This document shows positions 6,801-33,766 of a stretch of DNA of 64,000 bases, in pieces; within the stretch, counting starts at the first letter, position 1, and the number at the start of each line of letters is the position of its first letter. The notes below the pieces were generated by a model. It ran no database searches and was not told where the DNA came from. It worked only from the letters and a program-made list of their open reading frames with translations. The DNA comes from Marsupella aquatica (taxonomy: Eukaryota; Plantae; Marchantiophyta): NCBI GenBank assembly GCA_973895155.1, contig OZ316893.1:15220645-15284644 (forward strand), written 5' to 3'. The position numbers were made by a program, and so were the translations under genes.

Positions 6801-8604
6801 AAAGCAATCAGGTATCAGTATGTGATCACGTCCATGACTGGTGCATATGTTAGGTCGTAGTCCCTTCCTGGTATTTGGGTAAATCCTTTGGCCACCAATT
6901 GGGCCTTGTACCTTGCAACCTCTCAATCTGCGTTTCTTTTTCTGACGAAGGTCCATTTGTAGCCAGTCAGGTGTATATCTGGGGTTGCTTGTGTTATTCT
7001 TCCGAATACTTGTCTGGAGATGAGTGAGTCAAGTTCCAAATTGATGGCCTTCTCCCACTTGGGCCAGTCAGGTTGTCTCTGTGCTTCTGTTGTCGTCTTC
7101 GGGTCTGGTAATTCTTTTTCCAGTACCTGTGAAATCTGGAATGCGAACTGGTCGTCTATCTGGGTATTTTCTCGATCCCAAACTTGGCCCGTTTGTTGGT
7201 AATTTATAGCAATTTCGTCATTCTCCATATTTGTGGTTGGTTGAGTTGGTATTGTTGTTGATGACTGTCTTTGAGTTGTTGTAGGTATGGTTCTTCTTTG
7301 GCGTGGTTGACGATCCGTGGCCCCTATCAGGCGTCCCCGTTTGGCCCGTGGTGGGGCCTCAATTGCGGGTGTGCCCTCTTGTTCAATTCTTGCTGGTGTA
7401 TTCGCTGCAGGTACATGTGATTATATCACCTTTGCTACATCTACGAAGGAGTCTGGCAGTTGTTCAATCATTTTGGTAAGATGGATTATCCTCTGAACTT
7501 CTGTGTCAGTTTGGGCTGTTCTTGGATCGTTCCAAAATGTAGATTGTATTTGCCATTCAAGCTCAGTATTTATTTTCTTATCTGTATTCGAGCCTGTTAT
7601 TAGAGTAGGGAGTATATGCTCGTAAAAATGGCAATCCGTGAACCTTGCTTTGAATATGTCTGCTGTTGTTGATTCCAGGTATCGGATGATGGAGGTCGAG
7701 TCAAAGCCTATGTAAATCCCTTTCTGCCTCTGGGGCCCCATCTTTGTGCGCTTAGGGCCCAGGATGGGGACTAATACTTGGCATCTGAATGTCCTTAAAT
7801 GGGATATATTCGGAGTTGTTCCGAATGCTAGGTGGTGGGGTGTCCTATCGTTGAATGCAGATGGTCTGTACTGGAGGAGGGCAGCCGCATGGAGTACCGC
7901 GTGGCCCCATGCTGATGTTGGGAGTTTCGTCTGCATCAATAGAGGTCTGGCTATGATCTGTAACCTCTTGATGAGGGATTCGGCTATTCCGTTCTGGAAG
8001 TGGACATGGGCTATTGGGTACTGTATATTTATTCCTGTTGTTGTGCAGAAGTCTTCAAATGTTTGAGATGAAAACTCGCCAGCATTGTCAACCCTGAGGT
8101 TTCTTATCGGGTTGTCAGGGAATTGTGCTTTCAGTTTTAGGATATGTGCCAATATCCTTGAAAACACTAAGTTTCTGGTTGACAGGAGAGATACTTGTGA
8201 CCACTTCGAGGAAACATCAATGATCACTAGGAAGAATCGGAAGGGGCTGCTTGGTGGATGTATGGGATCGCATATGTCTGCATGGAGTCTTTCCAAGAAG
8301 TTCGGGATGTTTTTGTCTATTTTGTTTGGTGATGGTCTTGTGATCATTTTTCCCTGTGAGCAGGTGAGGCATGGAGTCTGTATGGATCTTGGATGTACTA
8401 TGTTTGGTATTCCCTGTGTGTCCTTTATGATTTTGTGAAACATGCTGGTGCCTGGGTGTCCCAGTCTCTGGTGCCATATGTCTGTGATTGAGGGTGGCTG
8501 TATGGCAGTGTGGTAACTCTATGTTTTTGTGGCATAATATCCCGTAGGGTAGGCATAGAAGGTCTCTTTGACTTTGTTTCCATTGGGGGTTTTGGCAATA
8601 ATAT
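3859..8604 (-). pseudogene. Copia pol: integrase, reverse transcriptase and RNase H, with stops/frameshifts, split by the 4241-5726 insertion
   Basis: WHQRLGHP; CLTC; LHADICDPIHPPSSPFRFFLVIID; LRVDNAGEF; QNGIAES; QMDIVTAYLYG; MYGLKQSGRTW; IYVDDL; GYADAD; SWKSTKQ...TSSNHSEIIA; FEDN; TKHI; ADLLTK. Confidence 0.96.
4241..5726. mobile_element. 1486-bp GC-rich insertion, probable solo LTR with non-canonical AGT...ACT ends
   Basis: Flanked by ATGTA at 4236-4240 and 5727-5731. Removing it restores the RNase H frame KQSLTTTSSNHSEII. Termini AGTCGCGGAACTCG and revcomp AGTGGTGGACCTCG match at 11/14. Confidence 0.8.
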
Positions 8605-9459
8605 CACTAGAAGAATCCGAGGTGAACTGAGACCGCAATATGTGACTCATTTTGGCTCATGTGACTTCATTGTGACTCAACGTGACTTGACCCACATTGT
8701 GACCCTTGGAGTTGCAAAAGTTGAGACCAACAAATGGAAGTCACTATTGATACTGGGCCTTGTGACTTGCTTGATACCCATTTGTGACTGATCTGTGACT
8801 TTATTGTGAAGTCTAGCCTTGTTTCTACGTGACTGCAATATGACTTTGACGAGTCACATGGTAAGTCACATACATGACTTACTCGCATTCAACAACGACT
8901 AGCGTGTGACCATTTAGTGTCACAGGAGAGACCAATGGAGACCCTGGCCCGGGTCACACAACATAACCATTTGGGACTCTATATACTCATGTTTATAACT
9001 AATAAGGTTCACATGCAAGTTGTAACCATGACTAATGGACACAGAGGGACAGTTCATAAGGAGAGAGAGCACTCCACATTACAATACATAGAAACCTGAT
9101 GTTCTAACTTTAGAAATATAACACATTGAATACAAGAAATGAACATAGCATGAATGACATTCACATGAAATAAAGCATCATATAAGGAGGTCCTACACAA
9201 AACATTAATAAGAATTAAACAAAATCATAATCTTGCTCAAAAATGTAGATCATTTGAATTCCAATGGAATAGTTTACAATGTGATCAATGTAATTCAGAC
9301 AAAACAGGAACTCATAATTGATGACTGCAGGATGAGATAACTGAAAGCACATGCATGATACTATGAATCTCCAAGAGGACATGATTCTTGTACTCCTTCT
9401 TGACATCTAAAATCTACATAACATGACTCACACTACGAACAAATAATGGCATGACATTG

Positions 9460-10847
9460 TTATGGATCCTCTATGAACTTGCTTGGCCATAATACCAAAG
9501 AACCTACAGCATCTCCAAGTGTCTTTTGAGGAGGATCATCATTTGTGTTTGGAATGGGAAGGACAGCTTTAGGTTTCACTAGTAATGTGACTAACACTAC
9601 TGAATAACCTCGGGGAATCCTCAGATTCCCATGGAACGTTGTGGAACCAACCTGAACTCTGCCAAATCCTACTCGTGTTCCACTCTCATCAACAGCTAAC
9701 AAGCCACTTTGTCCCTCAGCATTAGGTGCTTTCCCTACTTCCACCTTAGATCTTTCTTCCAGCACCATTCTTAGAGGTTTGTATGAAACCTTTGACGTGG
9801 CTCTGCTCCCACCAGCAGACTTGCTTCGTGTGTGCATGCTTCCTCTCTTCACAGTAGTGAAGCTAGGCTCAGTAGGTTCCTCTGTTAGGACTGTCACAGC
9901 AGTAGGTTCACCACCTGGGAGTGTCATACCAACTAACTCTTTGGTTGGATTTATCTCAACAAGAGGCACACCTGTCATTGAGAATGATACATTCTGCAAA
10001 TCATTTATCTTTGCAATGGAGTCAAGATAGCATGAATCTGGCTCAATGGTATCATTGTCATGCTTGTTGATATCCTCATTTGCCCCAACATTGATATCAT
10101 CCACTCCCTTGCCAATGTCATCCTCATCCAAACATGGTTGACTACCCTCTGTCAAACAAGTTGCTTGTACAGACTGCAACTTTGTTGCCTCTAAATTACA
10201 GCGAGTATTTGCCAGGTTCTCATACTTCTTCTCTGCAACACCTGTCTTATTCTCTATGGACACAACAACCACAATATATGTTACTGAAAATAACACATTC
10301 AACAAACTATGTCAATTCAAACTATACATTTACTAATCATATCCCACACAGTTGTAAAGGCCTTACCTTCAAGCCTACATGTCGTTGGCATGCCAGAAGA
10401 GTGCATCGACTTTGCCACCTCAAGTGGTGATGGTGGAACTCCTGCAGAATTGGAATCAATTTTATCTCTCACCAACACAACAGCTTCCATTAATGTCTTG
10501 AAGTTCACATGGAACAAGTCAGTCAATGAATTCAAACGTTCATTGATCTCTGGAAGACATGTTTTGACAGCCTTCAAACGACCACTTATCTCTGTAAGTG
10601 AAGATCCACCTCCCTACATGACACAGGGGTATAGGTTCAATCACTCCATATGAAATGTTGGGCAATATATGCACAATCAATGTTATATACAGTGTACACC
10701 TGAAATTCAACGTAGGTCATTCAATTACCAATCAGAACTCATATAACTTACATGCTTGGAGGATTCAGATGCACCCTCTTGAGCCCGGGTGTTCACAGTT
10801 TCAGCCCTCAACTCTTCTTTTGAAGGGCTTTGCCCCAATTGGGCTTT
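9460..10847 (-). pseudogene. 3' exons of the CACTA TnpA/ORF2-like gene
   Basis: Exon KAQLGQSPSKEELRAE... lies between TGCAG and GTAAG. The terminal exon ends VGFGRVQ...FHGNLRIPRGYSVVLV...LPIPN...TLGDAVGSLVLWP, a C-terminal motif typical of plant CACTA ORF2 proteins. Confidence 0.7.
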
Positions 10848-10871
10848 CTGCACATGCTTGTGAAAAACAAG

Positions 10872-11871
10872 CGCGTGGCGCACGGCAGCGAAGAGCAAAT
10901 GGCTATGGAGGGGAGCGATGGAGGGGGAGGGGCAGGAGCAGGGACAGGAATAGAATTTGGAGGAACAGCTGGAGGGCAAGGAGATGGTGGAGATGAAGGG
11001 TCAGGAGCTGGACGAGGTGGGGCTGGAGGAGCTATTGGGGATGGAGCAGGGCCATCAGAAGACTTTGGGGAGATCATGGCTGCAATTTTCCATAAGCAGG
11101 TAGGGCTCTCCATAGAGCATGCGCAAAAGGTGGCTGCATTGACACAAGGATTGCTAGACTCTTCTAGGAGCACTGTTCTTGCTGAAGCTCAGAAAACATT
11201 TGAGGAGAGGCAGCATACTAGGGAGAAAGAGAAGAAGAGGAAGAGAAGGGAGGAGAAGGAGACTGTACCTGTGGAGGCCCTCTCACCACGACAGAGAGAG
11301 AAGGCCTTACGTAGACAGGCACGGGCTGCAGATAGGAAAAGAGCCGAGGAGGAGAAGCTGCGAGCAGAGGAGAGAAGCAAGAGGCCAAAAATTCAGAGTT
11401 CGTGAGCAGGTGAAGGAATGTTTTTGCAACGGCTCATTCATTGATGACAGGTTCTTAAACAAGAAAATCAGTCTATCCCTTGCAGACAGAAGGAATCACA
11501 TCAGGGAGAAGCTGAGGAAGTACCTTGGTGAGTGCAAGGACAGTGAGGAGGTGATCAAGCAAAGAGGGTGCCCAAATGATATTCCTGTGGAGGTATGGCC
11601 AGCTTGGATTGAGACCGAGCTGCAGGTTCAAGCCTGGCAGGCAAGGAGATACTGGCAAGCTGAGCTAGAAGTCCTTGCAGTGAGGGTCCAGGCAGGGGAG
11701 ACTATTGACACCCGCCATGCTGATCAAAACCTGCAACATTGGGATGCAAAGTCAATTCAGCTTGGGGACCCTCCCTCACATATGCAAAAGGCATTGATTC
11801 GAGTTGAGAACAGGCCAGTAGTCACTCACAGAATGGGGCAGGGCGGGTCGCTGCGTCTCAAGGCAGAATTT
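10872..11871 (+). pseudogene. TnpA/Ptta-like (Transposase_24-type) exon on the opposite strand, frameshifted
   Basis: Gly-rich and charged region, then RNHIREKLRK...CPNDIPVEVWPAW...THRMGQGGSLRLKAEF followed by a GTAAG donor at 11872. Confidence 0.65.
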
Positions 11872-11946
11872 GTAAGTAGACTCCACCTCCTCTCTCCAAG
11901 CTCTTCCCTCCATTCACCTGATCACCTGAGGCCCTTCTTTGCCTGA

Positions 11947-14533
11947 AGAGCGCCGGCCCAAAGTCCCCTCTTATTGTCAAGCCGTGCGAGCCCTGCAAGC
12001 GCGCTATGCATGCGATCGATAACTCCATCTTTTTTTGTCGGGGCCCTATTTCCGATTATGGTCCGATAGTAATAGAATCGGAAAGACAGTCGGAAATATT
12101 GCTATGGCTTTTTTGGACGTCGTGTCCGATTCCAATCTGACATTGATGCTATCGGACAAACAATCAAAAAGTAATCGGACAGTTTGAATTTTCAAATTTT
12201 TTGACGGTTACCCTTGCGGATTATCGTGGTTGGTTCCATTGACCATTTTAAAACATGTTGGGGGTGATCTAGTGTGGATCTAATTGGGGTGTGACCCAGT
12301 GGCACTAATTGGGACTAATTTGGTTGTCGGTGCATTTTTTGAGGGGGGCAGGAGCGCGAGCATGGGCGACCAATATTGCCAGAAGAGAGGGAGTTGGCTA
12401 AGAAACAAGGACCACGGGCTCTTTGGATTCACTTGAAGGAGGAGCTGGGTTTGGTAAGGAGATTATTTTAAATGCAATGTCTTAATGGGGTGTTGAAATT
12501 TATTTCTAAAAAGCGTATACTAATTTAGGTGGTTGGTTGGATATATGCAGGGCTCAGACAAGGAGGGTGAGGAGGGTGAGGACTCGGCGGACAAGGGCTT
12601 AGGGCATAGCAATGGGGGATACGGCGAATCTGATTCAGAGTCGTCGGACCCAGAGGAGGGGATTGTGGCCATACCCCCTCCTCGCCGGTCCGATACAGTT
12701 AGGGGTAGTGCTAGGGCTCTTCAGTCGACCCGTCGTGGCCCCATAGCGGATGTTCGTGCGACACATACTAGGACCAGTAGGGGTGGTGCTAGTGGGACCC
12801 CTCACCAGCCTAAAGCCATAGGGGTTGGATCTAGTGGCAGACGTGACTCACGGGCTGCTGGCACAGGTGGTGAGGGTCCCCGGCGCCGGTCACGGGCTAG
12901 TGGCAGAGCTGATATTCGAGGCACTCGGCATGTGTCGCGAGATGAGCGACGTGCTGTTGGTGAGTTTGGCCGATTAGAGCCTCATGGGGAAGGGTGTTCT
13001 AGAGGCTCACAACACTCTGGTGCAGATGGGGGTGGCTCGGGAGGTTCTCGTCACTCAGGCTCGACAGGGGGTGGTGTTAGGGCCCCTGGCCAGTTAGGAG
13101 GGAGTGGTGGTGTTGCTGGTGTCTCTCCCCACTCAAGCCACATTGGGGGCGATGTTACTGCTCCTGGTCAGTCAGGAGGGAGTAGAGCTAGTGTCGGTGG
13201 TGTGTCTCACCACTCAGGCTGCATTGGGGGCGGTGTTAGTGCTCAGGGTCAGTCAGGAGGGAGTAGAGGGAGTAGAGGTAGTGTCAGTGTTGTCTCTCAC
13301 CACTCAGGCCGCACTGGGGGTCGTCGACCTGCCCCTGGCCAGTTAGGAGGGAGTACAGCCGGTGGAGTTGGTGTCTCTCACCCTTAAGCCCAGACTGGGG
13401 GTGCTCATATTGCCCTTGGCCATTCAGGAGGGAGCGGGGGTGGTACATCACGGCAGTCCGTTGGCAACGGGGCTAGTGGGGGTGGTGCAGCTTCCTTTCA
13501 TACTTGCCATGCAAGTGGGGGGAGCGGACCTTCCCATGACTCCCTAGCGTCACATGGTGGTGGTGGTGGTGGCGTGGGTCTAGTGCCTCCTATGACCTCT
13601 ACATAGGGGCCAGATGTTGTGGACCAAGTCACCATGGACAAGCCCCCATTCACCCAAGCTCCCGCCCAGACTAGTATTGTACCCCCACCACCTCGGACTC
13701 ATTCCAAAAAAAGGAAGGGACGACATGCTCCATTTTGACTTAGACTAGCTTAGATAGATAGAGATATACTGCGTAGCCTTAGACTTAGACGAGATTAGGA
13801 GTTGGATGTGCTTACTTTTGTGATCCCAGTACTTGGATCACTCTTGTACATTTTGGGGTATGTTTCCCTTTTGGAGTTTGAGTACCCTTTGTGGCCATAT
13901 ATCCTTCTTGTGTTAATTACTTCTATTGGCATTGTCTTTCAAATAACCTCTTCAACATCTTCAACAAATCCCTCTATGTTGTATTGAATAAATTCCCCCA
14001 AGAACCACCCTCAACCCCAACAAAAAAAATCCCCACAAGAAACCAAATGTTGCAATGAACCTAGGTCTTTCCCGAGTAATCTTCCGATACTTTTCCTATC
14101 GCACCCCTCCATTGCTTCCGAATCCCTCCGTTTCGTATGTTCCGATACCAATTATACGTCAAATTCCCATACCAAACCTATCGGAACATCCGTTTATTTC
14201 ACCACCGCAATGTCCGATGGGACTTTTAACGCAATATCCCTTGAAAATTCATATGGACAATTGTCGGACGACAGATCTTCACCTGGTGCAAGGAGAGGCT
14301 TCTTTCGACTCTTGTGACATCAGACACCTAATGTATCCGATTGGAGGAGATATGCAATGTCCGATAGTATTGGTATCGGGTGGTCCGAAACAGGTCCGAT
14401 GGTCCATATCCGATTCTGGGAGTATCGGACGGAGCGATGCAATTAGGATTGGAAACCTCAAAAATGGCGTCGCATTTTCCCGAAGGCGTCCGATGGTGTA
14501 AATATCGGTAAATGGCCCTAAAATGTACTAGTG
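11947..14533 (+). mobile_element. Nested, left-truncated second CACTA element
   Basis: Right terminus ...GTACTAGTG at 14533 (revcomp CACTAGTAC) cuts the host transposase. Many TCCGA/TCGGA subterminal repeats at 14080-14510 and 12050-12180. No matching left TIR found, so the left boundary is uncertain and could extend to about 10872. Confidence 0.8.
12352..13738 (+). pseudogene. ORF2-like 3' exons of the nested CACTA with Gly/Ser-rich tandem repeats
   Basis: Exon EREHGRPILPEERELAKK...LGL|GTAAG, then ATGCAG|GSDKEGEEG... with repeated HSGxxGGxVxAPGQxGGS units. In-frame TAA at 13385-13387. Confidence 0.55.
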
Positions 14534-17396
14534 ATAGATGTGGTCAGGTTCTTTGTGGTTGCAGCCCCTTCCAGTACTTCACCTATCACCCCTTTCTCCT
14601 CATCTGAATTCCACACCCTGGTCTTCACATGCTCATATTGTGCTATGTATTCGGTCAGAAATCCCAGAGTCTCATCCTTGATGTAACCTTTAGCCATGCT
14701 TGCTTCAGGTTTGTAATATGTTCTCACGTGACCTTTGAGTAGCTTCATGTACCGTTCCAAAGGGTACAACCAACGAGCACTCACAGGCCCAAATTGGTGT
14801 AGCTCTTCCACAACATGGACAAGTAGGTGGGTCATGACATCAAAAAATGCGGGAGGAAAATAAATCTCCAGGTCACACATCACCTGAGCGACATCTTCTA
14901 TCAGTTGCGGGAAGTGTGTTTCATCCCAAACCTTCACACAAATACGACGAAACACATCACTGAGTCGCATGATCACATTACAAACAGGCTTCTGCAACAA
15001 GCCCCTCAGACATAAAGGCAACACCTGTTGCATCAACATATGGTAGTCATGGCTTTTCATACTACCAAGCTTTCTAGTCATGATATGCTTCTTGAAAGCA
15101 CTGCCATAGTTTGAAGGAACCTTCAAAGAACTCAACCTCTGCACAAATAGTTGCCACTATGTGTCTGTCAAAACATAGGGCACTTGGTACTTCAAGAGCA
15201 CATCAGCTCTGTGGGCATGTGGCCTCAACCAAAGATGGGGTTTCATTCCCCTCTGTTCAAGATCCAATCTCACTGAACTAGTGTCTTTCTCTCCACACAA
15301 GAATCTGAGTAGACTCTCACAAATATTCTTCTCAATGTGAATAACATCAATGTTATGTTTGCTTGGCTCAAACTCCTGCATTGTTGCAATGCAAAAGCGT
15401 CAGCAAATGCCTCAAGTTTAGTCTCTCTTCAAAATGAATGCACATGCTCTGAACCAAAACATGTATCCCAATTTGCATCAACTCCAAGAGGCTTACCCTC
15501 CAATACTTGAGCTCCAAGTCCAATATGCTCAGTCTTTTTACACCATATCGCTTTATTGGATCACTCACTCCATCTTCTTTGCCCCCTCGTTTGATATAGT
15601 CATCCCTCAGTGCTCCCCACTGCCTGATCTCCTCTTTGGTCACTCGTGCCGGGGGTCCACGTTGCTCAATCTCATTGCCAAAGTCTGCAATCAGTGCTTG
15701 TCTTTCTCTGTAAGGGTGATATGTCTTCAAAAAACGACGATGGCCCATGTATATCACTTTCTGCAGGGCTCTGGAGTACTCACTGGTGACATTGCGCCCA
15801 TAGATAGTACAAGCACAATATCCTTTTGTTGTTTGGTCTGATATCATCCCATGGGCTAGGTAGTCAGCTACAGTTAGAATGACGATGGCTCTAAGGATGA
15901 ATGGGTTTAACCTCCCAAGCCTCTGTAGGACATCATATGTGAGGACTCCTTCCTCCCAAAGCTTTCTCAATTCCTCCACTAGGGGAGCCAAAAACACATC
16001 TATGTTGGCAGATATAGCACTGTCTGGCCCTGGTATCATTAGGACCATCTGAACAAAAAATCGCTTTGTAGTCATCCAAGGAGGAAGGTTATAATTCAAA
16101 ATAGTTACAGGCCAACACGGAAATTTGTTGTTCTTGTCTCCAAATGGGTTTACCCCATCCAATGACAGCCCAAGTCTGACATTCCTCGGCTCAGCAGAAA
16201 ATTCGGGATACATCTCATCTATGAGTTTCCACTACCTTGAATCTGCAGCATGTCGTTGTAGCCCATTATCACTTTTCTTGTCAGTTGCCCAAGTCATCAT
16301 CTCCAAGATGGCACGGCTTCTGAACATCCGCTGAAGTCTGGGAATGAGTGGAAAATGACGAAGTACCTTGGCGGGAACCATAGACTTTCCTGAGTTCCGA
16401 TACCTGTGCTTCCCACACTTAGGGCATGTCAACGATTCTGCATACTCCTTTCTGAAAAGAACATGCCCATCGGGACAGGCATGGATGGAATCATAGTTCA
16501 ATCCAAGATTAGATATGCATCTTTTTGCCTCGTACATGTTCTTGGGCAAAATATTACCATATGGTAGCATAGTTGTTCGCAAGAATGCCAACAACTCAGA
16601 AACCAAAACGTTGGGGACATTGCACGGTTGCCGCAAATGTTCAGGAACATGATGACAAATCCCAGTTTAGAACATTTGCTACCGGGGTACAAAGACTTCC
16701 TGCCTTCCTGTATTTGCAGGGGAGAGCCAAACATCCCATCATGCCCAGGGGTTTCCTGCCCTATCTCAAACTCATCAAGAGGCTCTTCGACAGGGGGCAC
16801 ACTTGCATCTGCAGCCATATCCTCTTCGTTGTCCAACCCATCGTGAAATGCATCCTAGTCTTGGAAGATGTCTCTCACCATCTCTTCCACATGAATTCCT
16901 TTGTCACGTGGTGTTGCCTGAGCACCATCCCATTGGAGAGCTGACAACCCACAGAGACCAGCTACAACATTTTCAAATGCACCAGGCAGAACCTCACTTG
17001 CCCGTCTTGCAGCATTGGCAGCATCAAATTCTAACCTCCACTCCTTGTTGGAAGAATCTTCCTCTACAGGATCATTCCAAACTCGATGTTGTGGATCTCT
17101 TCCATGAACCGCGATATGCCGCCAAACCTCATTCAGACCCCTGGTACGGGATCCTTGGCAGATTGCACAAGGACATCTCATCCTACTGGCTCCTGAAAGT
17201 CTGGTTCGTAACCTTTCACACTGCCAAAGCTTATTATCATGGCGTGATATCCTTGTGGGATGATGCAAAGGCAGTGCCTATGCCCTAGGCTGGGTCTGGG
17301 GAGGGTGGTGACCAGGGTGCATTGTAACAGGCTGGGAGCTCTGCAGTCATAGACAGCAGTGAACAAGGATGCCTAATGGTGGTATTTGTGTTCCAT
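14534..17396 (-). pseudogene. CACTA TnpD-like transposase (Tnp2/Transposase_21 + DUF4218-like), frameshifted and 3'-truncated
   Basis: RCPCAIC...RHIAVHG; IHACPDGHVLF; CPKCGKHRY; LRHFPLIPRLQRMF; PRNVRLGLSLDGVNPF; NYNLPPW; IDVIHIEKNI; MKSHDYH; FPPAFFDVMTHLLVH; GPVSARWLYPLERYM. Confidence 0.97.
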
Positions 17397-17621
17397 ATAT
17401 CCCTGACTGTATCTGCCAAAAGAGTTAACATAACGTGTACTAAATTCTACCCTAAACCACCTCAAAAGAAAAAAAACAGGTTCGCGAGTAGTGTACCTAT
17501 TGTCAAGTGAATGACACAGAATTCCTAAATGTTGGAGGGTGTCACCACCTCCTCCGCTGTCCTCAAATATACGGCCTCTGCATGTACACCCATGACCATA
17601 TCAGAGTCCAATCATGTTTAG

Positions 17622-18190
17622 TCACAGGCACAGGTGTGAGAGCGGTATCAGATATCTCACCTTATTACCAGGTGAGATATGGTACCAACCCTGTTCTTGA
17701 TGCCACTCAGACCTCAGGTACTCAGGCATGTACATTAAATCATCAAGGTCTAAACCCTGCTCATGCCATGGGGGTCTTGCATCCGTGCCTACAAGCAGTG
17801 GATGCACTGCCCTCCACTGGGGGCAAGTTGCTACCAAGTCCCTCCACCGTGTATTAATTTGTCTATATTTGCAGATATCTTGTGCACAGGACACCACAAG
17901 AACCCTCGGCCAGACATGTGAAAGAACTATATCATCTGCCAAATCAGGCAACAAGGAACCACCTACAACATCGGGCTTGTCTAACTCATCTACTGAAAAG
18001 TAGATGTCCACTTCCGACTATGCATCCTCGTTCACGATAGATTCAGCGTCTCTTGCATCCTCAGGCGGTGCCAAGAAATGTTTTAGCACCAACCCATGCA
18101 AGAGAGTCCTAACTGTGGCTAGCCATATGGCAACTCGGAGGAGGAGCTGTAATAGCGCCTGTTGATCTAGGAAAGGTAACATACCCATCA
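17622..18190 (-). pseudogene. F-box-like cargo ORF with one in-frame TAG
   Basis: LLPDLADDIVLSHVWPRV...ICKYRQINTRWRDLV fits the F-box pattern LP..I...I...L......L..V...WR.LV. The ORFs 18018-18305 and 17622-18011 are in frame across one stop. Confidence 0.6.
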
Positions 18191-18408
18191 AAGTCTGCCG
18201 CCGAGATTTGAGCCCACCCAGTACGTTTACAGTGACACCCCCAGGCAGCAGGAAACAACAATCCGCCAACAGTAAAATAAGCCCAACTGCCACCAACCAT
18301 AACAAGGTACATTAGTTCAAAGATCACATTTATTTCAATGATCTGATTTATACAAAAAAACTTGTGTCCAAATTGATGCTACTACTCCTCACTCTGATGG
18401 GGTATTTA

Positions 18409-18655
18409 CAAACGACAGGAAACAGCAAACAGTAACAGAAAACAGAAACTGGTAACAGGAAAATGAGTGGTAATTTTTTTGAATTTTTTTTAATTCAAAA
18501 GGGTAGCGCCCAAAGCTAGCCAAAAAATGTTGTAACTTAGATTTTTTTGGAAAATGAAACTTTTTAGAAAACATTTTGACATGGTTATTTTTGCTGGTAA
18601 CAGGAAAAATTTTCCTGGTACCAGTAAACCTGTTTCCTGTTTACTGTCACGCGTG
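18409..18655. mobile_element. MITE related to the 32612-32925 element
   Basis: Inverted ends GACAGGAAACAGCAAACAG / CTGTTTCCTGTTTACTGTCACGCGTG around an AT-rich core. Shares GCTAGCCAAAAAAT with the 32.6-kb copy. Confidence 0.7.
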
Positions 18656-19534
18656 CCATACCCACTCTGATTCAGAATCGCTAATGACCCATTCCTCACT
18701 TGTTGTCTCATAGTCCTCTCTGTAAGGATCCTGACCCTTCCGTGGCCAGGCCTCAAAAAGATCATAGTCCATTGGGTTTTGATGCTTCCCAGTTGCTACT
18801 GATTCCACAAACCAAGCATATGAAACCATAAACACATTATGGGACATGACATAAAAGCGAATGTCTCCCTTCCCAAACTTGCCGCAGGCTTTGGGATATG
18901 ACTTAGTAATGACATGAGTGGTGTCCTCTATTATATTCTCCTCCACTGTCCCACCTAGGTCAAGCACTGTGGACTTGTACACTTTGCACTTAACCTCTCC
19001 AATTCCCGCCTCCACAAATACCATGCTCAGCCCTTTCAGAATGGGGGTTGGTTGCTTCGTCTCCTCAGCCAACATACTCTTCAGCCTTGTAGAGCTCTGT
19101 CCTTTGTTGAGTACAGGTCCATATTGGAGATCAGCAAGCCTTGCCTTTGCTTCCCAGACTTCTTGTTCAGCCCAAGCTGATGCAGTAGCTTCTTCATCCT
19201 CCCACAACTCATATTGCTCAGTATCCTGTACAATCTTATGTGCTATGGAATCTGTGATCCAAGAGGCCTCAACTACTTTTAGGCCTTGCTTAGTAATTAC
19301 AGAATTCATGTAGGACCATGACCACTTCTTTATCACTGATAGCCATGTCCCTGCAACAACATGTGTAGTCTCTGGAGTGATGTCCTGAACTACAGTGCCA
19401 TGGAGCTCAGAGAATCGTTTCTGTACAGTTGGCCAATGCACTTTGGTCAACCCATGCTGGCCATGGACCAAAATGGCTCTGACCCCTGTAACCACTGTTG
19501 GGTGGTCACACTTTCTATGTTTCCCAGGCTCCAT
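18647..19534 (-). CDS. Tandem BRCT-domain protein (DNA polymerase lambda-type BRCT), CACTA cargo
   Basis: Open 295-codon frame with two repeats: ...GTVVQDITPETTHVV...VVEASWITDSI...YEL and LKGLSMVFVEAG...LGGTVEENIIEDTTHVI...KFGK...VSYAWFVESVATGKHQNPMDYDL. Splice acceptor 11 nt before the ATG. Confidence 0.85.
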   Translation of the reverse strand: MEPGKHRKCDHPTVVTGVRAILVHGQHGLTKVHWPTVQKRFSELHGTVVQDITPETTHVVAGTWLSVIKKWSWSYMNSVITKQGLKVVEASWITDSIAHKIVQDTEQYELWEDEEATASAWAEQEVWEAKARLADLQYGPVLNKGQSSTRLKSMLAEETKQPTPILKGLSMVFVEAGIGEVKCKVYKSTVLDLGGTVEENIIEDTTHVITKSYPKACGKFGKGDIRFYVMSHNVFMVSYAWFVESVATGKHQNPMDYDLFEAWPRKGQDPYREDYETTSEEWVISDSESEWVWHA

Positions 19535-20126
19535 GTACACACACCCTACGTGATGACAATGAATTTTGGAAGAATGGGTTCACCTGACAATACAAGGACA
19601 ACAAAATTCCTGCTTTTTGAGTTGATCTGGCCCACTGGTGCTCAGGTCTGATTTTGATAGGTACAAGGGATATGTGAACAATACGTACTAGGCACCTGCA
19701 CGGATGCAGGACATTGTTTGAATATATACTACAAAATCCATATCGAAGGTGAAATGAAGTGTAACCAACTTGTCATGGCACATACATATTTTGTTGTAAA
19801 GGAGGATACATTCAATGACAAACTTATAGGGCAATTTGATTAATTGCATGCCTGATAATTTATACGCTTACAACTTAGAAGTCCTATTTTAATTTAGCAG
19901 TCTGATGAAAGTGTTTATGAAAATGACCACTCAGCCTAAATACTTCCAAGAAGGCTTGTAAGGATAAGTTTTTATAGGCATGTACCCAGCCACTGACGCC
20001 AGAGCACAAGATAAGTGCTACCTATATAAACTCGCCTACCCAACTCCTTTTCAAAATTGGAATCTCTGCAATCTCAAAAAATAGTACATCCACATCAGGT
20101 GCACTGTGCATGTACAATGTTCAGCT

Positions 20127-20771
20127 TCACAGCCAAGATATGTGATCTCTCATAGGAGTGCGCGAGGTAGGATCAATGGCATGGCGATGACAATAAAATA
20201 TCCATCGATCAACACCATGTGCAGAGTGATCATAGATTTCTCTATCACAAGCATAACCCTTTGCTTGACGATCTTTCAGGCAATGATAGTGCCACATAGT
20301 GGGACACCTAGCATAGTGGACTATGTCAGTCCAATAGTCATCATCATGCTCACCACATGCCTTGCACCTATGAAGTGGGCAAGCTGTGGCATGAGCAGGC
20401 AAACACTCAAAACAGAAAAATCTCACACAAAAACGGTATGGACATTTCCTAACATTTGCTGCAGCATCAACAGAGCCCTCATAGGACCCCAACTTCCCAC
20501 ATTGTGCACACTTAGCCTGCTTCTCCAAACTATCAGTGCACATCCAGTCTCCCTGGTGTGTTGACGGGAGGCCCACCCCTGGACAGTTGTTTTCTGCAGC
20601 AAGGTCAGACTCCGGGTTGAGGTGGAAATGCCTGATGCAAGGGCCCTCACAAATGACCAGGCCCCTACCATCATCACAAATGGCACAACAATGAGCTGCC
20701 TTTTGGAAAATCTGACTTGTGTTTCTCATCTCTGTCACACGCTTTTTGGCTTGAATTTTAGGTCGTGCCAT
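20127..20771 (-). CDS. EDM2-like composite PHD-finger protein, CACTA cargo
   Basis: CAICDDG...CEGPCIRHFH...C...CAQCGKLGS...CPLHRCKAC...RCPTMWHYHCL...IFYCHRHAID...TPMRDHI follows the EDM2 PHD region motif by motif. TGCAG acceptor 2 nt before the ATG. Confidence 0.85.
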   Translation of the reverse strand: MARPKIQAKKRVTEMRNTSQIFQKAAHCCAICDDGRGLVICEGPCIRHFHLNPESDLAAENNCPGVGLPSTHQGDWMCTDSLEKQAKCAQCGKLGSYEGSVDAAANVRKCPYRFCVRFFCFECLPAHATACPLHRCKACGEHDDDYWTDIVHYARCPTMWHYHCLKDRQAKGYACDREIYDHSAHGVDRWIFYCHRHAIDPTSRTPMRDHISWL

Positions 20772-20782
20772 GCCTGCACATG

Positions 20783-20926
20783 AGATAGACTCTACAATTT
20801 AGCAGACTGCACAAAAAGTAATATATATTTAGCATTTAAGGTACAAAAGCATTTAGATAGACTCTACAATTTAGCAGACTGCACAGAAAGTAAAATATAT
20901 TTAGCATTTAAGGTACAAAGGCTTTT
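20783..20926. repeat. Tandem duplication, 2 x 72 bp
   Basis: AGATAGACTCTACAATTTAGCAGACTGCACA... starts at 20783 and again at 20855. Confidence 0.9.
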
Positions 20927-21498
20927 GCTACTGCAATGAATTGGAATGGCCACACAAGGATGCAGAGCAGACATACTTTTGGTATGTTGAGCCAACACAC
21001 AAAACTGATCCCCTAATACAATTGCTCCACCAACACCTCAATTTTAATTGTGGCTATGATTCACCAAAGGAGATCAGCAACAACATTTCATGCATTTGAA
21101 TCACATACAATAGTCGTGACATGTAAAATAGACATTCTTCAAAGAGGATTGGTATGAAGCAGTGTCATAAGGGTTTAAATTTATACATCCTAAATAGGCT
21201 ATGATAGTGGCTGAGACAAATAAGTGAGGCATAAGTCACATTTTATAGGTTATCACATGGCCCATTAATTCATTGAACGTTGCAATGTTCACCAGGTTAA
21301 AGCAATCATGAAAGTAGTCTTTCAATAGAGACTTTTAAGCGAGTTTGCTAGCCTCTTAAATTAGGATATTTTGCTTAGTGCAGGCATAATAGGATAAGTT
21401 ATGTACTGTTGACCTTAAACCCTGGACCCAAAATTGCTCATACATCAAAAATTTAAGTAAATATCCTCTGTGTTGAAATCAGAGTGTTAAGCTATAGG

Positions 21499-21993
21499 TC
21501 AATGGTATCTGGTCTGTGCATGCGGTGTGACAAGTGGTCCTCTAGAGCATGTGATCCAAACATGTGTAGACACCAAAGTCACCGGTGGTGGGGTCTGGGA
21601 GGGCAGGACAAGTAACATCACCAGGCACACTGCAGGATGGCGAGTGGTTCCAGATGATACATTGTGCTCTGTGCAAAAATCAGCATCCAAGAGAACGGTC
21701 ATCCAATTCTGAGCCAGAAGCCTACAAGCAGGACAGTCATATTGGCAACTATGCACACACCCTTGGCACCTAATTTGTGGCGGGTCATGTACAAGAGACT
21801 GTACAAATACCAAGGATGTCGGGAAGGGTACTGAAGCAGGTAGAGGCCGGCTGTAGTTGTTCCTGGAAACAACTGGGTACTCAAAGTACCATGTAGACTG
21901 GGCTGGAAGGATCCCAAGTCTGACATACTCAAGGCGCAACATCTCTGCCTTGCGTGCGAGCCGCACATGTTCAGCGTTGTGGGTCCTCACCAT
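21499..21993 (-). CDS. Unknown Cys-rich ORF, possible CACTA cargo
   Basis: 164-aa ORF on the same strand as the other cargo, containing CQGCVHSCQYDCPAC. Family not recognised. Confidence 0.35.
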   Translation of the reverse strand: MVRTHNAEHVRLARKAEMLRLEYVRLGILPAQSTWYFEYPVVSRNNYSRPLPASVPFPTSLVFVQSLVHDPPQIRCQGCVHSCQYDCPACRLLAQNWMTVLLDADFCTEHNVSSGTTRHPAVCLVMLLVLPSQTPPPVTLVSTHVWITCSRGPLVTPHAQTRYH

Positions 21994-22506
21994 AAGTGTT
22001 GCTTTTGTTGTGATGTCCTCTGTTCACGTCCTTTGATGAGCAAGGCAAGCAGGAGGTCGACTTGCCTCTCCAACAGCAACCAACCTAAACTAATCAGTTC
22101 CCATTCATTGTCTTGCTTCCAACTACAGGTCATAGTATACACATAGCATGAAACATGCATAGTACATATTTGATTCTGAGTTTATGAGTTTCCTAAGACA
22201 AAGAGCTTGGTGATAAACCCATGATCTCGATGGACATGTATATCAATCATATTAAGATCCTATTTTTTCATCCTGAAAGACCAAAAGTCTCACCTTGCAG
22301 GTTGCACTAGAGAGAAAATTCACTGGCTGTCATGTTGTGCAAGTGAACCTCCACTGATGCCCCCGGTGTAGCCCCTCAGATGCAGGTGACACTTACCAAC
22401 TCCCAAGTTGCCTGGTCTAAAAGAAAATGCTGATATCTTCAGAACTTTATAGAGCAAGTACATGATCACATGGCGTTGGCCCTACCAAACTGTACGTTCA
22501 GAAAGA

Positions 22507-22605
22507 GACTACAATATTCATAAAGAGTCAACTCTACACTTGGTTCATACACATACTTCTGGATATATTCATATTTGGCCTTATGGAACTCTTGCCAACT
22601 ACAAC
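22507..22605 (+). pseudogene. Captured ubiquitin fragments
   Basis: DYNIHKESTLHLV at 22507-22545 (ubiquitin has DYNIQKESTLHLV) and GTLANYN at 22585-22605. Confidence 0.75.
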
Positions 22606-23097
22606 TTACTCCCATTATGCACAAGCTCACATCAACAGAGAAAGATACAGAATGCATACTTACTATGGCTGTAAGCACCTTCACTACCTGTTGAACCCAG
22701 TCCTGAAGTCTTTTCAGCGTGTTTGTTGTGCTGTCTCCTTTGATACCCAACACCTTAGTCCTTGATGTAACAGAATGCGATTTGACAAGTTAGATGCTTT
22801 GGAACCTTCTATGGTCTTAGCTGAATTGATGTCATCGTAAGTGGTGAAAGACAAGGAAGACAAAAGCTGGTTGAAGAGCTGTGGACAACACACTAGCATG
22901 AAGTGCTTCAACCAATCCACTGCCAAACGGAACTCTTACACAGTCACATTCTTTCAGTAAACAGAAACTCAGTCAAACTTCATAATCAAAGTACAGACTC
23001 TGAAGGACCAAAGGAGGATGTTGTGAGTTTCTCTGTTGTTTAATGTGTTACACTTCTAGTTTTGAAGTTAGCAAATGCTGAATAATGTGTCTACCAG

Positions 23098-23439
23098 ATC
23101 TTCGAAAACAAGCCCACCACAATTAAGAACTTCGGTATCTGGGTGAGGTATCATAGTCGTACAGGTTATCACAACATGTACAAGGAATATCGTGATACCA
23201 CGTTGAACGGAGCTGTAGAGCAGGTGTATGATGAGATGGCTTCTTGTCATAGAGTTCGGTTCCCTTGCATCCAGATCATCAAGACTACGACAGTCCCTAT
23301 CTCTCTGTGCAAGCGAGAAAGTACCAAGTAGTTCCATGATTCAAAGATCAAGTTCCCCTTGACGTACCGCAAGATTCAACCTCCATCGCGAAAGCTGAAG
23401 ACGACTTACAAGGCCACTAGGCCCAACACATTTGTTTGA
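23098..23439 (+). pseudogene. RPL18A: Captured last exon of 60S ribosomal protein L18a (eL20)
   Basis: CAG|[44 protein letters not shown]...IQIIKT...[10 protein letters not shown]...[12 protein letters not shown]. Premature TAG at 23329-23331; upstream intron acceptor retained. Confidence 0.95.
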
Positions 23440-26400
23440 GTAGTGCGGGTGCAGCTTCCCAATTTTGAAACAATTTTGCTCATTTTATGTCCCGAGGGAC
23501 TCCAGGAGTTTATGTATTGAGTTTCTAGGTCAAGATGCTTAATATAAGTGAGTACGCATCAGTGGATACAGTGAGAGGGCTAAAATTTCATATGTCTGGA
23601 GTTGAAAGAACCCAACAAACACACTACCAAAATTAGAAAGAACCCAATAGACAGAGTACCGTTCTCAGGGGAGTTACAGGTCAACTTTCAAACATAAGTG
23701 TAACCATTTCAAGGCCAAACTTTATTAACTCCCCAAAACAGAGCACAAGGAAGCAAAGGACTTAAGCCAACCCGTCAAAGTTTCAGACCTGTCAATGCAG
23801 CAGCTCCCAAGTGTGCTTAGGTAAGCTCGGCTCAAAATCAGCCTCAATAGCTCCCACGCTGAGTACCACTGATTGTAGGCAATATGGAGCCTGAGACTAC
23901 CATCATTGTTCAAATTTGAGGTGAGGAAAGAGGGTACCAAAATTCTAGAGAACCCAATACCAAACATGCGGTGGCCTTAAATATCATTCCTATATTTATA
24001 TTCACAGCAAAGTGTTTAATTTTCATAAGCAAGTTAGGGTCGAGCTCGAAATACACTTACAACCAGCCGAATGTCAATAGCGCTCACTGCGGAAGGTTGA
24101 GATGTGTCGCTGATGGTAGCGCGTTTGCAATCCCCTCCACCTGACCAGTTGCAGCTCACAGTCATTTTCAGGAATTAATGTGTATCCTGTACCTCATTCA
24201 TTTCCTCATTATTTTCCCCAACTCAAATATTGGACTGCCATTTAGTTAAGCCTGTCTTTAATTTCTAACACCATGGAAGATTCGACTTACTGAGTAATGA
24301 CTTTAACCAGAGCGAACTAGAATGAACGAAACATCTCACGACATCATGGACAATTTAAAGTGACAAAATACAAGATACAGAATAGGATACAAAAGAGGAC
24401 ATGGCAAAAAGGACGAGTTGTAGGCTTGGAACGAGAAGAATGATAGAGAGACTCCAGAGTCTATCTTACCTTCACAAACTCTGAAAGATTTTACAAGCAT
24501 TACAATGTGCAAATGAATGAGCTCTCAAGACCAAATACATTTTCGCCTACACTGAAACAGAGTCCACAAACTCTGTACCCAACCGCTGTTGGAGGAGCTC
24601 CATCCCCACAATCGATTGAAAAAGCACATTCAACCTGAGCTGAGAGCGATTCCGGAAGGACGGACGGGCATTGAGTCACAGACAATCATGTGAGTTTGGG
24701 GTCCCAGGCGCATCTGTGATAGGAAAAAATAGCTCGGCCGCAGTTGTGATGGCAGGGCGGGTGCAGTAGGAGGCACTCATCAGGCAGCTAGGGAGGGAAG
24801 GGAGGGGAGGGAGAGAGGGAAGGGAGAAGAGGGAGAGATGGAAGGGAGCGGAAGGAAACTTCGAGCCCCCACAGGGGGAAGTCACTCTGTCTTACTACTC
24901 ACTTACAACAAATGAAGGTCACAGGTCCTTAAACCCTATCCCGAGTCACAATCATAAAATGCAGCTTGCATCACACAATTAAAAGAACACCAGGCAATTG
25001 AAGGAAGCAGCATTCGGCAATGGACCTAGGCAGCTCGCGAATTTCGCTCAGTAGCGATGTCACCTAGACCCTAAACACACAATGCATACATCACCTAGAC
25101 AACTATACTTGCAGCCACGAGGTGAGTCCGCGTCGATAGGGGATTGCAGCCTTACCTGTGCCGATGTAGCACCAAGCCGCCCTAACTGAAACTGCGTAGC
25201 AATCCACAGCAATCGCTCAATGCAAAAGCAGGGCCCGGTTGGCCTTGCAGCCCGATCATCCACCTTCAACCCTGCCACCAAGCAATGAGCTCTCCGCTGT
25301 TGCTCACCCTAAACCTTCAACACTCCCGCGAAGTTGTGTCTGCTTGCAAGAACAACTCCTTGCGAATCTTTCAACCCGGCCTAAACCCATAGCACAATCG
25401 CAAAACCTAGCAATGTCACCGCTGCAACGTTTTGTGCTTGCAATAAGCAGCCTCCTAAACCCACAGCTCCTTCCACCGTTCACAAAATGCCAATGACTCA
25501 ACCCTCCTTCCAACCCCGAGCTCCCAATAGTAGCAAGAATCCAAGCAGGGTCTCCTGCAAGCGCACAGCAGAGACAAGATCTCTCGGAGCTCAATAGGAT
25601 TCACTCGAAGGCCCAAGCCTGACAATGTTCGGCTCTTCCTTCCCGCTCACCAAATGCCAAAACATAGGGCGCGCGAACCAGTGTTGTTTCTCCCAAGGGT
25701 TTTGGTACAAGGGGTTCGGGCAAAACAATCTGTGCAGGGCAAAGGCATTACGATGTAACATGTGGAAACTTGCGGCATGGTCCATTAGGTGAAGGGGTTC
25801 ATGAAGCCAATTGAGGGCAACACGCATTACAAGGAAGAGTAGGGAAAAATGACCACTCAGCAAAGGCATTGCATGGTACCCTTAACAAAAACAGTCCCTA
25901 ATATTGGGCCGTTCAATATTCCTACATGAAGGGAGCTGCAACCATTTGAAAATGGCCAAGGGGTATATTTGGAGACAGAACGCTGCCAAATGATGTTAGT
26001 GGGTTCAGTGTGTGTCTTTCTGTTTGTATGATGGAGTAACCAGTGGCCAAAATCATGGCGCGCGACTTGCAATTGCACCAGCCTCAGGTATATATAGCCA
26101 CACCTATAATAATTGTCAATCATACAGATAAAGTATAAAAGGACTGTCTGGTTAGATTTGGGATGTGGGCTGAGATTATTATTTAATAAGAGCCAAAGTT
26201 ACATTGTTCTTATATATGTGCAACCATGGTGATAAAGATGGCAGAAAGCGCTATTATAATTGTGCTGATCGAGCCACTTATAAAACTTCAAAATAGTTGC
26301 CTACACTAAGTTACAATTGCAACACTCCAAATAGTTATAGATATGACTCTCCAAAAATTCACCAAAACTTAGTTGAGAAGGTGTAACAAAGATGACACCA

Positions 26401-26486
26401 ATAACCTTGGAGTCACTGATTTCCAAAGGTCTCAAGACAGTCATGCAAGGGAGGGTCTCAGATAGGGCCGGTTTCTTCTGGTGTAT

Positions 26487-27835
26487 GTAACACTTCTTGT
26501 GTATTTATCATGTTGGTGTGTATGTGCAGGTCATTTGCACGTATGTCTTTGAAACTGAACAAGTTTCTTGTGGCTTTTGGGGCGTATATTGCTGCTGAGA
26601 TGTGGATGATTGTCCCTCTCGGTAGTATTATTATTGCAGGTCCATATCCTTCCTCTAGTTGGTGTTGGCCTAGTATGGTAGTAATTCGTCTTTGGGAGGG
26701 GATTATTTTGCTAAAGTATTTTCTCTCCCGCAGGATTGTGTGGGTTGTCCCACTATCAACGATGCAAAAATCCAAATCATTCATGGTTGGGTTTTGGTTT
26801 ACCAAGTGGATTTCTGGTAAGATTTCAGTAAATTCTAGAAAAGCTCCATGGGTCTCAAATTCCGGTTGTGTTAAGCTCTTTTTGTATAGAGCTACCAGGT
26901 GGGTTGGGGCGCGGCATACCTTTTGTGTACATGGCCTCTAGTTCCACACCTGTAGCATGTTATCGGGTTGTCTTGTCTCCCTCTTTGGCTGCTTCCTGTC
27001 TTGGTTTCTCTGTTGTGGGTATCTGGATCCTCTCCTCCATGTTGTTCTTTCGTTGTTGTATCTCCCCCTGCCTCGGCCCCTGCCTCCATATGGTGGTCTT
27101 CTTCGTCCCCCTTGGTTATATCCTCCTCTGCCTCGGAATGTTCCTCTGCTTCGGTATTGACCTCTTTCTCTATATAGGTTCCTGTTCCTGTTTTGTGTAT
27201 TTTGGGGTGCAGTGTAATGTGTTTCAGTGTTGGGCTGCGGGGGAAGGGTTCCAGGGGGTCTTTCTCTAGTGTTTTGTAGTAGGAGGATTTGATGCTTTTC
27301 TGCTAGTAGCATGTGTGCCATTAATTCTGAGTATTTGGTGAATCTCATGTTCCGATATTGAGTAGATAGGATCAGATTTGTTGAGTGAAGTGTTGATAAG
27401 GTTTTCTCGATTTGTTCTTCGTCTCCCACCGGTTGATTGCAGATGGCTAGTTGTGAGGTAATCCTGAATAACTCACTGTTGTATTCGGCAATCGTTTTGA
27501 AATCTTGAACTCGCAGGTTTACCCAGTCGTGCCGTGCCGCGGGCAGGAATATCGTCCTTGTGTGATCAAACCGTGCTTGCAGCTCATCCCATAGTATACA
27601 AGGATTATATTTGTTCATATATTGTCGCCTTAGTGGTTCTGCCAAATGATGTCTTATGAGTATTAGAGCTTTAGCTTTTTGCTGAAGTGTTGGTCTTGCG
27701 TCCGTTAGAGTACGTAGCATCTTGGAGGTCCTTTGATGTCAAATGCGCCTCTACATCGAGTGACCATGATAGGTAGTTAGATCCGTCAATGCTTAATGCC
27801 TGGAAGAGCAATTTTTCCATTGTATTGGTAGCCAT
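26487..27835 (-). pseudogene. Copia gag and protease, frameshifted
   Basis: FQALSIDGSNYLSWSLDVEAHL; ARHDWVNLRVQDFKTIAEYNSELFRITSQL; zinc knuckle CYRCG; protease IVDSGTTHTIL. Confidence 0.95.
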
Positions 27836-28347: not shown

Positions 28348-28490
28348 TGTTGAAACACCACCAGAATAATGTTGTTCTTCTCATTCATGTGTGTGGTCTT
28401 TATACATCGAGGTGGTTACTTTAATAGTAACTACCTAAGGTTTGGTGTTAAACCTTACCCTGAAGTAGACTTAACCTATGGGTTCTAACA
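28348..28490 (-). repeat. 5' LTR of the copia element (143 bp)
   Basis: Matches 3092-3233 except for one substitution and a 1-bp indel. Confidence 0.95.
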
Positions 28491-32611: not shown

Positions 32612-32925
32612 CACCGTGACAGCAAATAGCAAACAGATTTACTATTACGAGCAAAAAAATTCCTGTTACGAGCAAACTAGACAATCTAAAAATGTGTCAT
32701 TAAAAGTCACAATTTTCAAAATAATTTAAAACATGACAATTTTTTGCTAGTGTAAGGCGATACTATTACTAGCTCCGGGCGCTAGCCAAAAAATATCGAC
32801 TCACAAATATTTTTATATTTTTTTTCCCCAAAAAATAATCCAAAAAAAAAATTCCAAAAAAAATCCAAAATTTTTACCACCCGTTTGCTATTACGAGTAA
32901 CTATTTGCTGTTTGCTGTCACGGTG
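32612..32925. mobile_element. MITE with CACCGTGACAGCAAA TIRs
   Basis: Perfect 15-bp TIR that extends imperfectly inward, around an AT-rich core. Flanks are GTTTT/GTTAT. Confidence 0.85.
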
Positions 32926-33766
32926 GTTATACCTGTTGGGGACCCAGTTTTTTGTTGGGCCTCCTTTGGTACTCATGTGGGTGTTTCCTTATTATTCCCT
33001 TTATTGGGTCTTTTTTCCTTTAGTATCTTGTCTCCCGGTTAGGCATTCGTGTCTATTTGGCTGTGTTGTAGTAAGGTAGGAGATGCTCCAAGATGAAGAG
33101 TTAGTAGATCGGTAGGATAATTATTTGCAGCTTTTTACTAAAGTACCCCCCAAACTAAACATTATTACAATCTTGCCCCCCAAACTAAACTATTTACTAT
33201 ACTGCCCCCCAAACCGTATACCGATGCTTCTAACCAGACTTCTCGACCACGGAAGCGATCCTATTGGCTATCACGTAACCGCAGTCGACCACCCTTGGTC
33301 ACACTAACCCGCGAGATCAGTCACGTACGCAGCCTGCACCCAGCAGCGCCGCGCCTAAGGCGTCCGATACCTGTCGGGGCCTGGCTCCCACCAAGGCGCA
33401 CTTGCGCCCAATACTTCCCATTCCTCCTCTCGAGCCCCAACGAGCTATCGGGCCCCGACTCCTACCAGTCAACTTACGCTAAGGGCACGACTTCTACCAA
33501 TCGTTTTCTTCAAGGAAACACGCACATTGAGGCATATGATCGATCTCAAGAGGAGGGCGAACGGGAAGGGCAGGTAAGGGAAGGGGAGCCGCCAAATTTT
33601 CTCTAGCACAGCACTGGGAGGGTCGAGGCGCAGAAACACAAGGAACGCCACATTTGAAATTTCTACTAGGAGCGCAAATCGAAGCAGCATTTCCACTTCG
33701 GGAAAGCCATTATTTTAAGGTGCTGCAAGGTGAGATCGACCTCGAAGGCCAAGTGTGGGGTGTGCA

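Follow-up and report, generated by a model that had tools for sequence, protein, structure and literature searches.

A window of 64,000 nucleotides from the liverwort Marsupella aquatica (contig OZ316893.1, positions 15,220,645 to 15,284,644; coordinates below are those of the window) contains a dead CACTA transposon that carries, upstream of its transposase and on the same strand, a gene for a small EDM2-type PHD protein and a gene for a protein with two BRCT domains. The PHD protein starts like histone H3, a feature that is new here and absent from the sequence-only reading made earlier of this DNA. On balance we favour the view that both genes are kept by the transposon and that the H3-like tail probably baits the enzymes and readers of lysines 4 and 9 of histone H3 (H3K4 and H3K9). 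The features on which this view turns are as follows.

8605..26483, minus strand: composite CACTA element, 17.9 kb, seated in a Copia retrotransposon; TAT target duplication at 8602-8604 and 26484-26486
14534..17277, minus strand: TnpD-type transposase, with stops and frameshifts, truncated at a nested element
18647..19534, minus strand: tandem-BRCT gene, its last codons supplied by a 264-bp insert
20127..20771, minus strand: intronless EDM2/NSD-type PHD gene, 214 residues, the copy here lacking two of the zinc ligands
20742..20771, minus strand: H3-like N-terminus M-ARPKIQAKK (Ala1, Arg2, Lys4, Ala7, Lys9)

The PHD and BRCT genes

Four open frames lie on the minus strand upstream of the transposase (22023-21502, 20798-20130, 19579-18650 and 18017-17625), in the order Cys-rich, PHD, double BRCT, F-box-like and then transposase, an arrangement that the sequence-only reading had described correctly. 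In 1000 simulated sequences the 310 codons of the BRCT frame and the 223 codons of the PHD frame were never reached (0/1000), while 174 codons, the length of the Cys-rich frame, were reached in 9/1000. The 131 codons of the F-box-like frame were reached in 136/1000, which places that frame at chance level by length.

The PHD frame matched three NSD-type PHD models of Pfam, all below cut-off, and gave a profile match over the full length of the module to EDM2-like host proteins, in which the atypical PHD repeat module is present; the earlier assignment to the EDM2 type is upheld. Three relatives were found among 27 candidates, with identities of 77, 78 and 42%, lengths of 220-226 residues and the same start and end. 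Across the family Cys is kept at 80/92 positions as against 328/776 for other residues, and when the PHD sequence was substituted neutrally to 45% identity the frame was still open in 3/1000 runs. The window copy had been called open and diverged, which holds (27-32% identity to seven EDM2-like proteins, five of them named hosts), yet it is not intact, with 2/26 invariant Cys/His lost and 12 codons fewer than P0003.

A profile search with the PHD module returned 405 matches. Among the 150 listed, 17 were assigned to a small stand-alone family and the remainder were mostly long EDM2-like proteins, those named being from Marchantia, Riccia, Calypogeia and Ceratopteris. In a careful tree of 31 rows with midpoint root, from which short and long-branch family rows (such as P0015, P0124 and P0136) and P0160 were left out, 11/11 family rows fell on one side of a branch (100/100). 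A quick tree of 62 rows likewise grouped the 13 labelled family rows with one another and with P0017 (SH-aLRT 98). The family does not exhibit the long multidomain layout of EDM2 orthologues with its acidic, PGR and ELP regions; its members have 214-245 residues, comprise the PHD module only and form a separate branch. An acidic residue before the first Cys, which in other PHDs binds unmodified H3K4, occurs in 0/20 family rows versus 82/86 of the other hits, hence the specificity of the family may differ from that of EDM2. The earlier proposal that the protein reads heterochromatin is, as stated, made doubtful by this loss.

A MAR.K start was also seen elsewhere, in small EDM2-like proteins that consist of the PHD only (P0046, P0054, P0068, L002:541-1662 and L003). 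Given that the seed-plant branch is where P0046 and P0054 were placed, their layout may represent a second, independent origin.

The predicted pair of BRCT domains was borne out, the Pfam cut-off being passed twice in the window frame (E 2.9e-11) and also in 3/3 homologues scanned. Two relatives were found among 1294 candidates, with 294-295 residues and 57 and 52% identity, and neutral substitution to 55% identity left the frame open in 0/1000 runs. The best matches in the PDB were weak and mixed, namely Rtt107 (E 0.003), ligase IV (E 0.005) and BRCA1 (E 0.006), and the second BRCT domain alone gave nothing below E 0.27. Engagement of end-joining factors, as proposed earlier, is a tentative reading of this weak and diverse set; we also presume a likeness to Pol lambda. 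A structural model of the BRCT protein had a pLDDT of 30.8 and was discarded.

Judged from their sequences, the PHD and BRCT frames are both real genes under selection, and the PHD gene stands on its own branch apart from host EDM2. The sequence-only reading had proposed a maintained accessory set and had named as evidence to the contrary frames confined to this copy, neutral decay across copies or near-identity to host genes. For these two genes we found instead intact distant relatives elsewhere, conserved ligands, distance from host genes and a separate branch; this support does not extend to the other two frames.

The histone H3-like N-terminus

Histone H3 starts ARTKQTARK. The tail of the window protein shares with it Ala1, Arg2, Lys4, Ala7 and Lys9 once the initial Met is set aside, and the tail of P0005 is identical to H3 at 7/9 positions. 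Among the 19 family N-termini scored (P0016 was too short), [AST]R.K occurs in 16/19, Ala7 in 11/19 and Lys9 in 9/19, while the same features occur in 5/86, 1/86 and 0/86 of the other hits. Shuffling gave means of 1.6, 0.15 and 0.17, and the observed counts were reached in 0/2000 shuffles, counts that are not probabilities, given that family members share ancestry and that the motif was picked once the tails had been inspected. We then scored six positions outside the motif choice in 15 rows (P0162 was dropped, being in the same cluster as P0161) and found 29 H3-identical residues versus 9.5 expected, a number reached in 0/20000 shuffles. Met stands immediately before the motif in 9/16 motif-bearing rows.

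The start MARPK of the window protein agrees with the definition of H3 N-terminal mimicry proteins (H3TMs), iM-Z-R-X-K (PMC8166343), which 48/20,996 human proteins share and under which ARTK is counted as an H3-like start (PMC8166343). A search of the 22-residue tail against the PDB gave no match. Collectively, these data incline us to regard the tail as a functional mimic of H3, a view we hold with a little more confidence than doubt.

Association with the transposon

Part of the window is present in 8/10 listed sequencing runs from six studies, none of them recorded as RNA, and four of these runs (X1, X2, X5 and X6) were aligned at 80% likeness. Median summed depth in X1 was 61k for the left arm, 52k for the transposase and 51k for the cargo, and in X2 it was 104k, 110k and 118k, respectively. 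The arm with a captured RPL18a fragment was lower (14k in X1, 39k in X2), and the nested part and far-right arm had about 1-1.5k. The cargo thus seems to form part of the high-copy core of the family; this is only a hint because depth was summed over contigs and is no copy number. Some contigs bridge the genes directly: X5 record 23 runs from the PHD-BRCT spacer into BRCT, X5 record 21 from the spacer into the transposase, and X6 record 27 connects the end of BRCT with sequence upstream of the F-box-like frame. These three contigs bear two further organism labels.

We consider it likely that the element itself maintains both PHD and BRCT. An alternative is a Pack-type capture, in which small host PHD and BRCT genes with host functions were acquired once and then multiplied neutrally with the element. 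The element does take up host DNA, the RPL18a capture noted earlier being real (66/77 residues identical to the best plant eL20), and the small MAR.K proteins described above show that PHD-only EDM2-like proteins exist elsewhere. This copy also decays neutrally: among 40 listed differences between window and reads, out of a set with 1548 more, seven lie in BRCT or PHD and 6/7 of these alter the protein; three of these sites show in the reads the Cys, Gly and Met typical of the family.

Metagenome and viral contig scans are also in keeping with capture, since no distant PHD or BRCT homologue was seen beside a transposase in them, which is the chief weakness of the view we favour. In metagenomes a narrow PHD alignment gave 0/118 candidates, and a wider one gave 14/144, none family-like, all of them host-like EDM2/PHD loci only; BRCT, F-box, Cys-rich and transposase matches were absent from these loci. 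In viral contigs BRCT gave 0/128 and Tnp2 0/4.

Three observations speak against capture. The small PHD family comprises 17 distinct clusters at 50% identity, only five of them with the C-terminal family motif, a pattern that suits a multi-copy decaying gene and that short contigs could mimic. In X6, bins for transposase, BRCT and PHD have values of 98-2354 versus 2-11 for F-box, spacer and Cys-rich bins, which is a weak hint in the same direction. Finally, 0/19 family clusters looked up come from an annotated genome. Overall we judge capture to be unlikely; if it were true, the result would still be an undescribed small family of EDM2-derived proteins. As the family is seemingly absent from annotated proteomes, there may be a class of chromatin genes that goes unseen because of repeat masking.

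A possible mode of action

In the reading we favour, removal of Met would expose Ala1-Arg2-x-Lys4...Ala7-x-Lys9, and host writers or readers of H3K4 or H3K9 would bind or modify this tail. The PHD module would anchor the protein on chromatin or dock the tail, silencing of the element would be loosened as the outcome, and the BRCT protein would likely recruit repair factors to cut ends. That the tail engages host H3K4/H3K9 factors and thereby eases silencing is a possibility to which we give somewhat less than even weight. Similarly tentative is the full proposal that a deep plant CACTA lineage encodes an H3-tail mimic joined to an EDM2-derived PHD as an H3K4/H3K9 decoy, together with a dedicated tandem-BRCT repair adaptor.

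Several observations weigh against the favoured reading. The motif is missing in 3/19 N-termini, those of P0004 (a close relative), P0011 and P0114, and 7/16 sequences bear it behind an extension, as does one sub-branch. Position 6 is never identical to H3, Lys9 alone gives only p 0.02, and the relatedness of the rows and the late choice of motif count here too. A MAR start with Ala7 is found in several non-seed-plant EDM2-like hosts (the long proteins P0019-P0022, P0031 and P0049, four of them named from liverworts), and MAR.K opens three small EDM2-like proteins in the clade of seed plants, so the likeness may be partly inherited or generic. Furthermore, protein collections contain open frames only, which biases both the comparison of intact relatives and the neutral runs.

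The two genes might instead be accessories for target choice and repair rather than for anti-silencing, with a PHD that directs insertion by reading a chromatin mark and a basic tail that serves as a nuclear-import signal or self-docking switch. The tail is indeed rich in Lys and Arg, loss of the acidic residue ahead of the first Cys hints at a changed specificity, and a BRCT neighbour suits a role in a transposition step. A PHD also has a role in RAG2, which is the partner of a transposase. That transposase falls in the same wider clade as the one here (PMC12730594), and the histone-like linker of BAZ2B regulates its own PHD (PMC5663869). This explanation does not account for H3-identical residues above the composition-matched expectation. 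Nuclear import requires neither fixed spacing nor an extreme N-terminal position, and both are found here, with Ala7 part of the spacing. We regard it as improbable, to much the same degree as capture.

If the decoy reading is true, a plant transposon uses histone mimicry against silencing. Such mimicry is known from viruses. To our knowledge, escape of plant transposons from silencing is understood for few systems, VANC and TnpA, all of them DNA-binding, and a route at the level of histones would differ from these. For tests of this idea a short peptide and a single small gene without introns are enough.

The F-box-like and Cys-rich frames

17622..18188, minus strand: F-box-like frame, motif at about 17832-17954, in-frame TAG at 18018-18020; weak
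21502..22023, minus strand: Cys-rich frame, 174 codons, coding status putative

A coordinated module of all four frames that includes a working SCF ubiquitin-ligase adaptor is very improbable: the F-box-like frame resembles Atlas F-box clusters (0.93, 0.89 and 0.87) and has a Pfam F-box at E 0.17, and in X1 and X2 the high-depth core takes in all four frames, but the F-box-like frame has no homologue among 167 candidates, a chance-level length and an in-frame stop, is spanned by deletions in X2 and X5 contigs and has low depth in X6, and the Cys-rich frame is without a match. The Pfam score was 12.3 bits versus a cut-off of 20.5. The Atlas F-box clusters ranked behind two others, the 0.93 cluster having 109/256 features in common with the frame. 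A model of the F-box-like protein (pLDDT 44.6) was discarded, and a fold search gave no match.

Of the F-box-like label a sub-threshold motif is what stands, and the ubiquitin-ligase role given to it earlier is weak because no homologue was found; degradation of host proteins fares no better, as some copies have lost the motif by deletion. The Cys-rich orphan is supported by its length and by nothing further, giving neither a Pfam nor an Atlas match in a search that covered these two resources. Both frames may simply ride along, as optional or non-coding sequence. That the four frames share a spliced leader was weighed and set aside, acceptor-like sites ahead of some starts being the only sign of it.

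Anatomy and state of the element

8605..8920, strand unassigned: left terminal inverted repeat (TIR) and TGTGACT/AGTCACA subterminal repeats
9463..10613, minus strand: second-gene remnant, no Pfam match
10850..14533, strand unassigned: second, nested CACTA remnant with end CACTAGTACA at 14533 and TCCGAT repeats; left border approximate
18399..18662, strand unassigned: small inverted-repeat insert of 264 bp with 9-bp duplication CACTCTGAT, at the BRCT 3' end
23098..23440, plus strand: captured last exon of RPL18a, opposite in strand to the element, with an internal stop
26473..26483, minus strand: right TIR, reading CACCAGAAGAA, without a TGTGACT array behind it

The claim of an element with TIRs and a target duplication proved correct. 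Its left end is CACTAGAAGAA at 8605 and its right end CACCAGAAGAA finishes at 26483, with a 10/11 match between them; TAT forms a 3-bp target duplication on both sides, and one X2 contig fuses 8601 to 26484, giving the empty Copia site. The transposase matches Transposase_21 (Tnp2; E 4e-58) and DUF4218 (E 2e-27), so that CACTA/CACTG-type short TIRs, a 3-bp duplication and a Tnp2 transposase occur together. The TGTGACT repeats described earlier are present at the left end and not behind the right end, where the arm is of low depth and is probably a variant end of the CACTA element.

The copy is composite and dead, because its transposase is broken, a nested CACTA end lies at 14533 and the 264-bp insert sits at the BRCT 3' end. 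X2 contigs show a loose end at 14534. CACTAG at 14533 was considered as part of the transposase and ruled out, since other copies diverge exactly at 14534. We take the remnant at 9463-10613 to be a probable TnpA-like gene, and the 264-bp insert, judged by the length of its duplication, to be Mutator-like. The insert is missing from the X6 contig (record 27). A search of Rfam gave no match within 8600-26500.

Within the nested CACTA, 81/90-nt tandem units occupy 13046-13437 in a Gly-rich open frame. A second copy of the inverted-repeat family that interrupts BRCT lies at 32612-32925 (72% over 149 nt, in the region 32615-32763). The surrounding Copia retrotransposon, which the CACTA element splits, spans 3092-28468, has gag, protease and integrase matches and contains two direct repeats of 121 nt (3092-3212 and 28348-28468; 99%).

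Relation to known systems

Heterochromatin at transposons is a site of EDM2 action, and EDM2 binds chromatin marked by H3K9me2 (PMC7529245). EDM2 and EDM2-like proteins (PMC7529245; PMC3632883) share the NSD-type PHD module with the present protein over its whole length. Unlike EDM2, the present protein is the PHD module alone, of about 220 residues, intronless, 27-35% identical and on its own branch; it is without the DNMT1-RFD domain found in several EDM2-like hits and has no acidic residue preceding its first Cys, and it has an H3-like N-terminus and lies inside a transposon. With H3TMs it has in common the iM-small-Arg-x-Lys start (PMC8166343). H3TMs were described for human host proteins, and the portion of that paper drawn on here has 0 matches for 'transpos' (PMC8166343); the present tail, known from sequence alone, differs by adding Ala7 and Lys9 and by its fusion to a PHD.

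VANC, from VANDAL/Mutator elements, is a transposon-encoded anti-silencing factor that binds element DNA motifs (PMC5735166), and TnpA of Spm is likewise anti-silencing (bioRxiv 10.64898/2026.08.24.746577). The likeness to VANC and TnpA lies only in the proposed role of a transposon accessory that counters silencing; no similarity to them was found, and whereas they bind element DNA motifs, the present protein would act as a decoy at the histone level.

The coding capacity of CACTA elements is not always limited to TnpA- and TnpD-type proteins, the norm assumed in the sequence-only reading, as published exceptions exist (PMC6431247; PMC12730594). Fungal EnSpm elements carrying TET/JBP (PMC12730594) combine a CACTA backbone with an epigenetic enzyme, with other cargo and in another host, and Chondrus En/Spm elements of 16-20 kb with 4-5 open reading frames (PMC6431247) are similar in size and have extra genes, again in a different host. 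Arabidopsis EN/SPM elements encode TnpD and TnpA, and the portion of that paper drawn on has 0 matches for PHD, BRCT or F-box (PMC13547354). The RPL18a piece fits Pack-CACTA capture (PMC13317346); PHD and BRCT differ from such captures of recent host fragments in that both frames are complete, deeply diverged and related to genes under selection. In the literature covered, with most subscription papers and Repbase outside its scope, no CACTA element with PHD, BRCT or histone-mimic cargo was found. The 962 Spm structures of a recent preprint include unnamed 'various accessory proteins' (bioRxiv 10.64898/2026.08.24.746577), and novelty is provisional because these may bear on it.

Other features of the window

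A Mutator-like element with long inverted ends occupies 33117-37412 and matches MULE/MuDR transposases at 35591-36660; at 33734-34213 the N-terminal part of RNase H1 gave a weak match. Two further long inverted-repeat elements lie at 45084-46238 and 49373-50462. The open frame at 38595-39464 has a Polyketide_cyc2/Bet v 1 domain and is probably a host gene, which we take to be PYR/PYL abscisic-acid-receptor-like. Together with the plant-type eL20 fragment, this gene marks the window as DNA of a land plant. A Prp3 C-terminal domain match (E 3.7e-11) was seen at 57094-57759.

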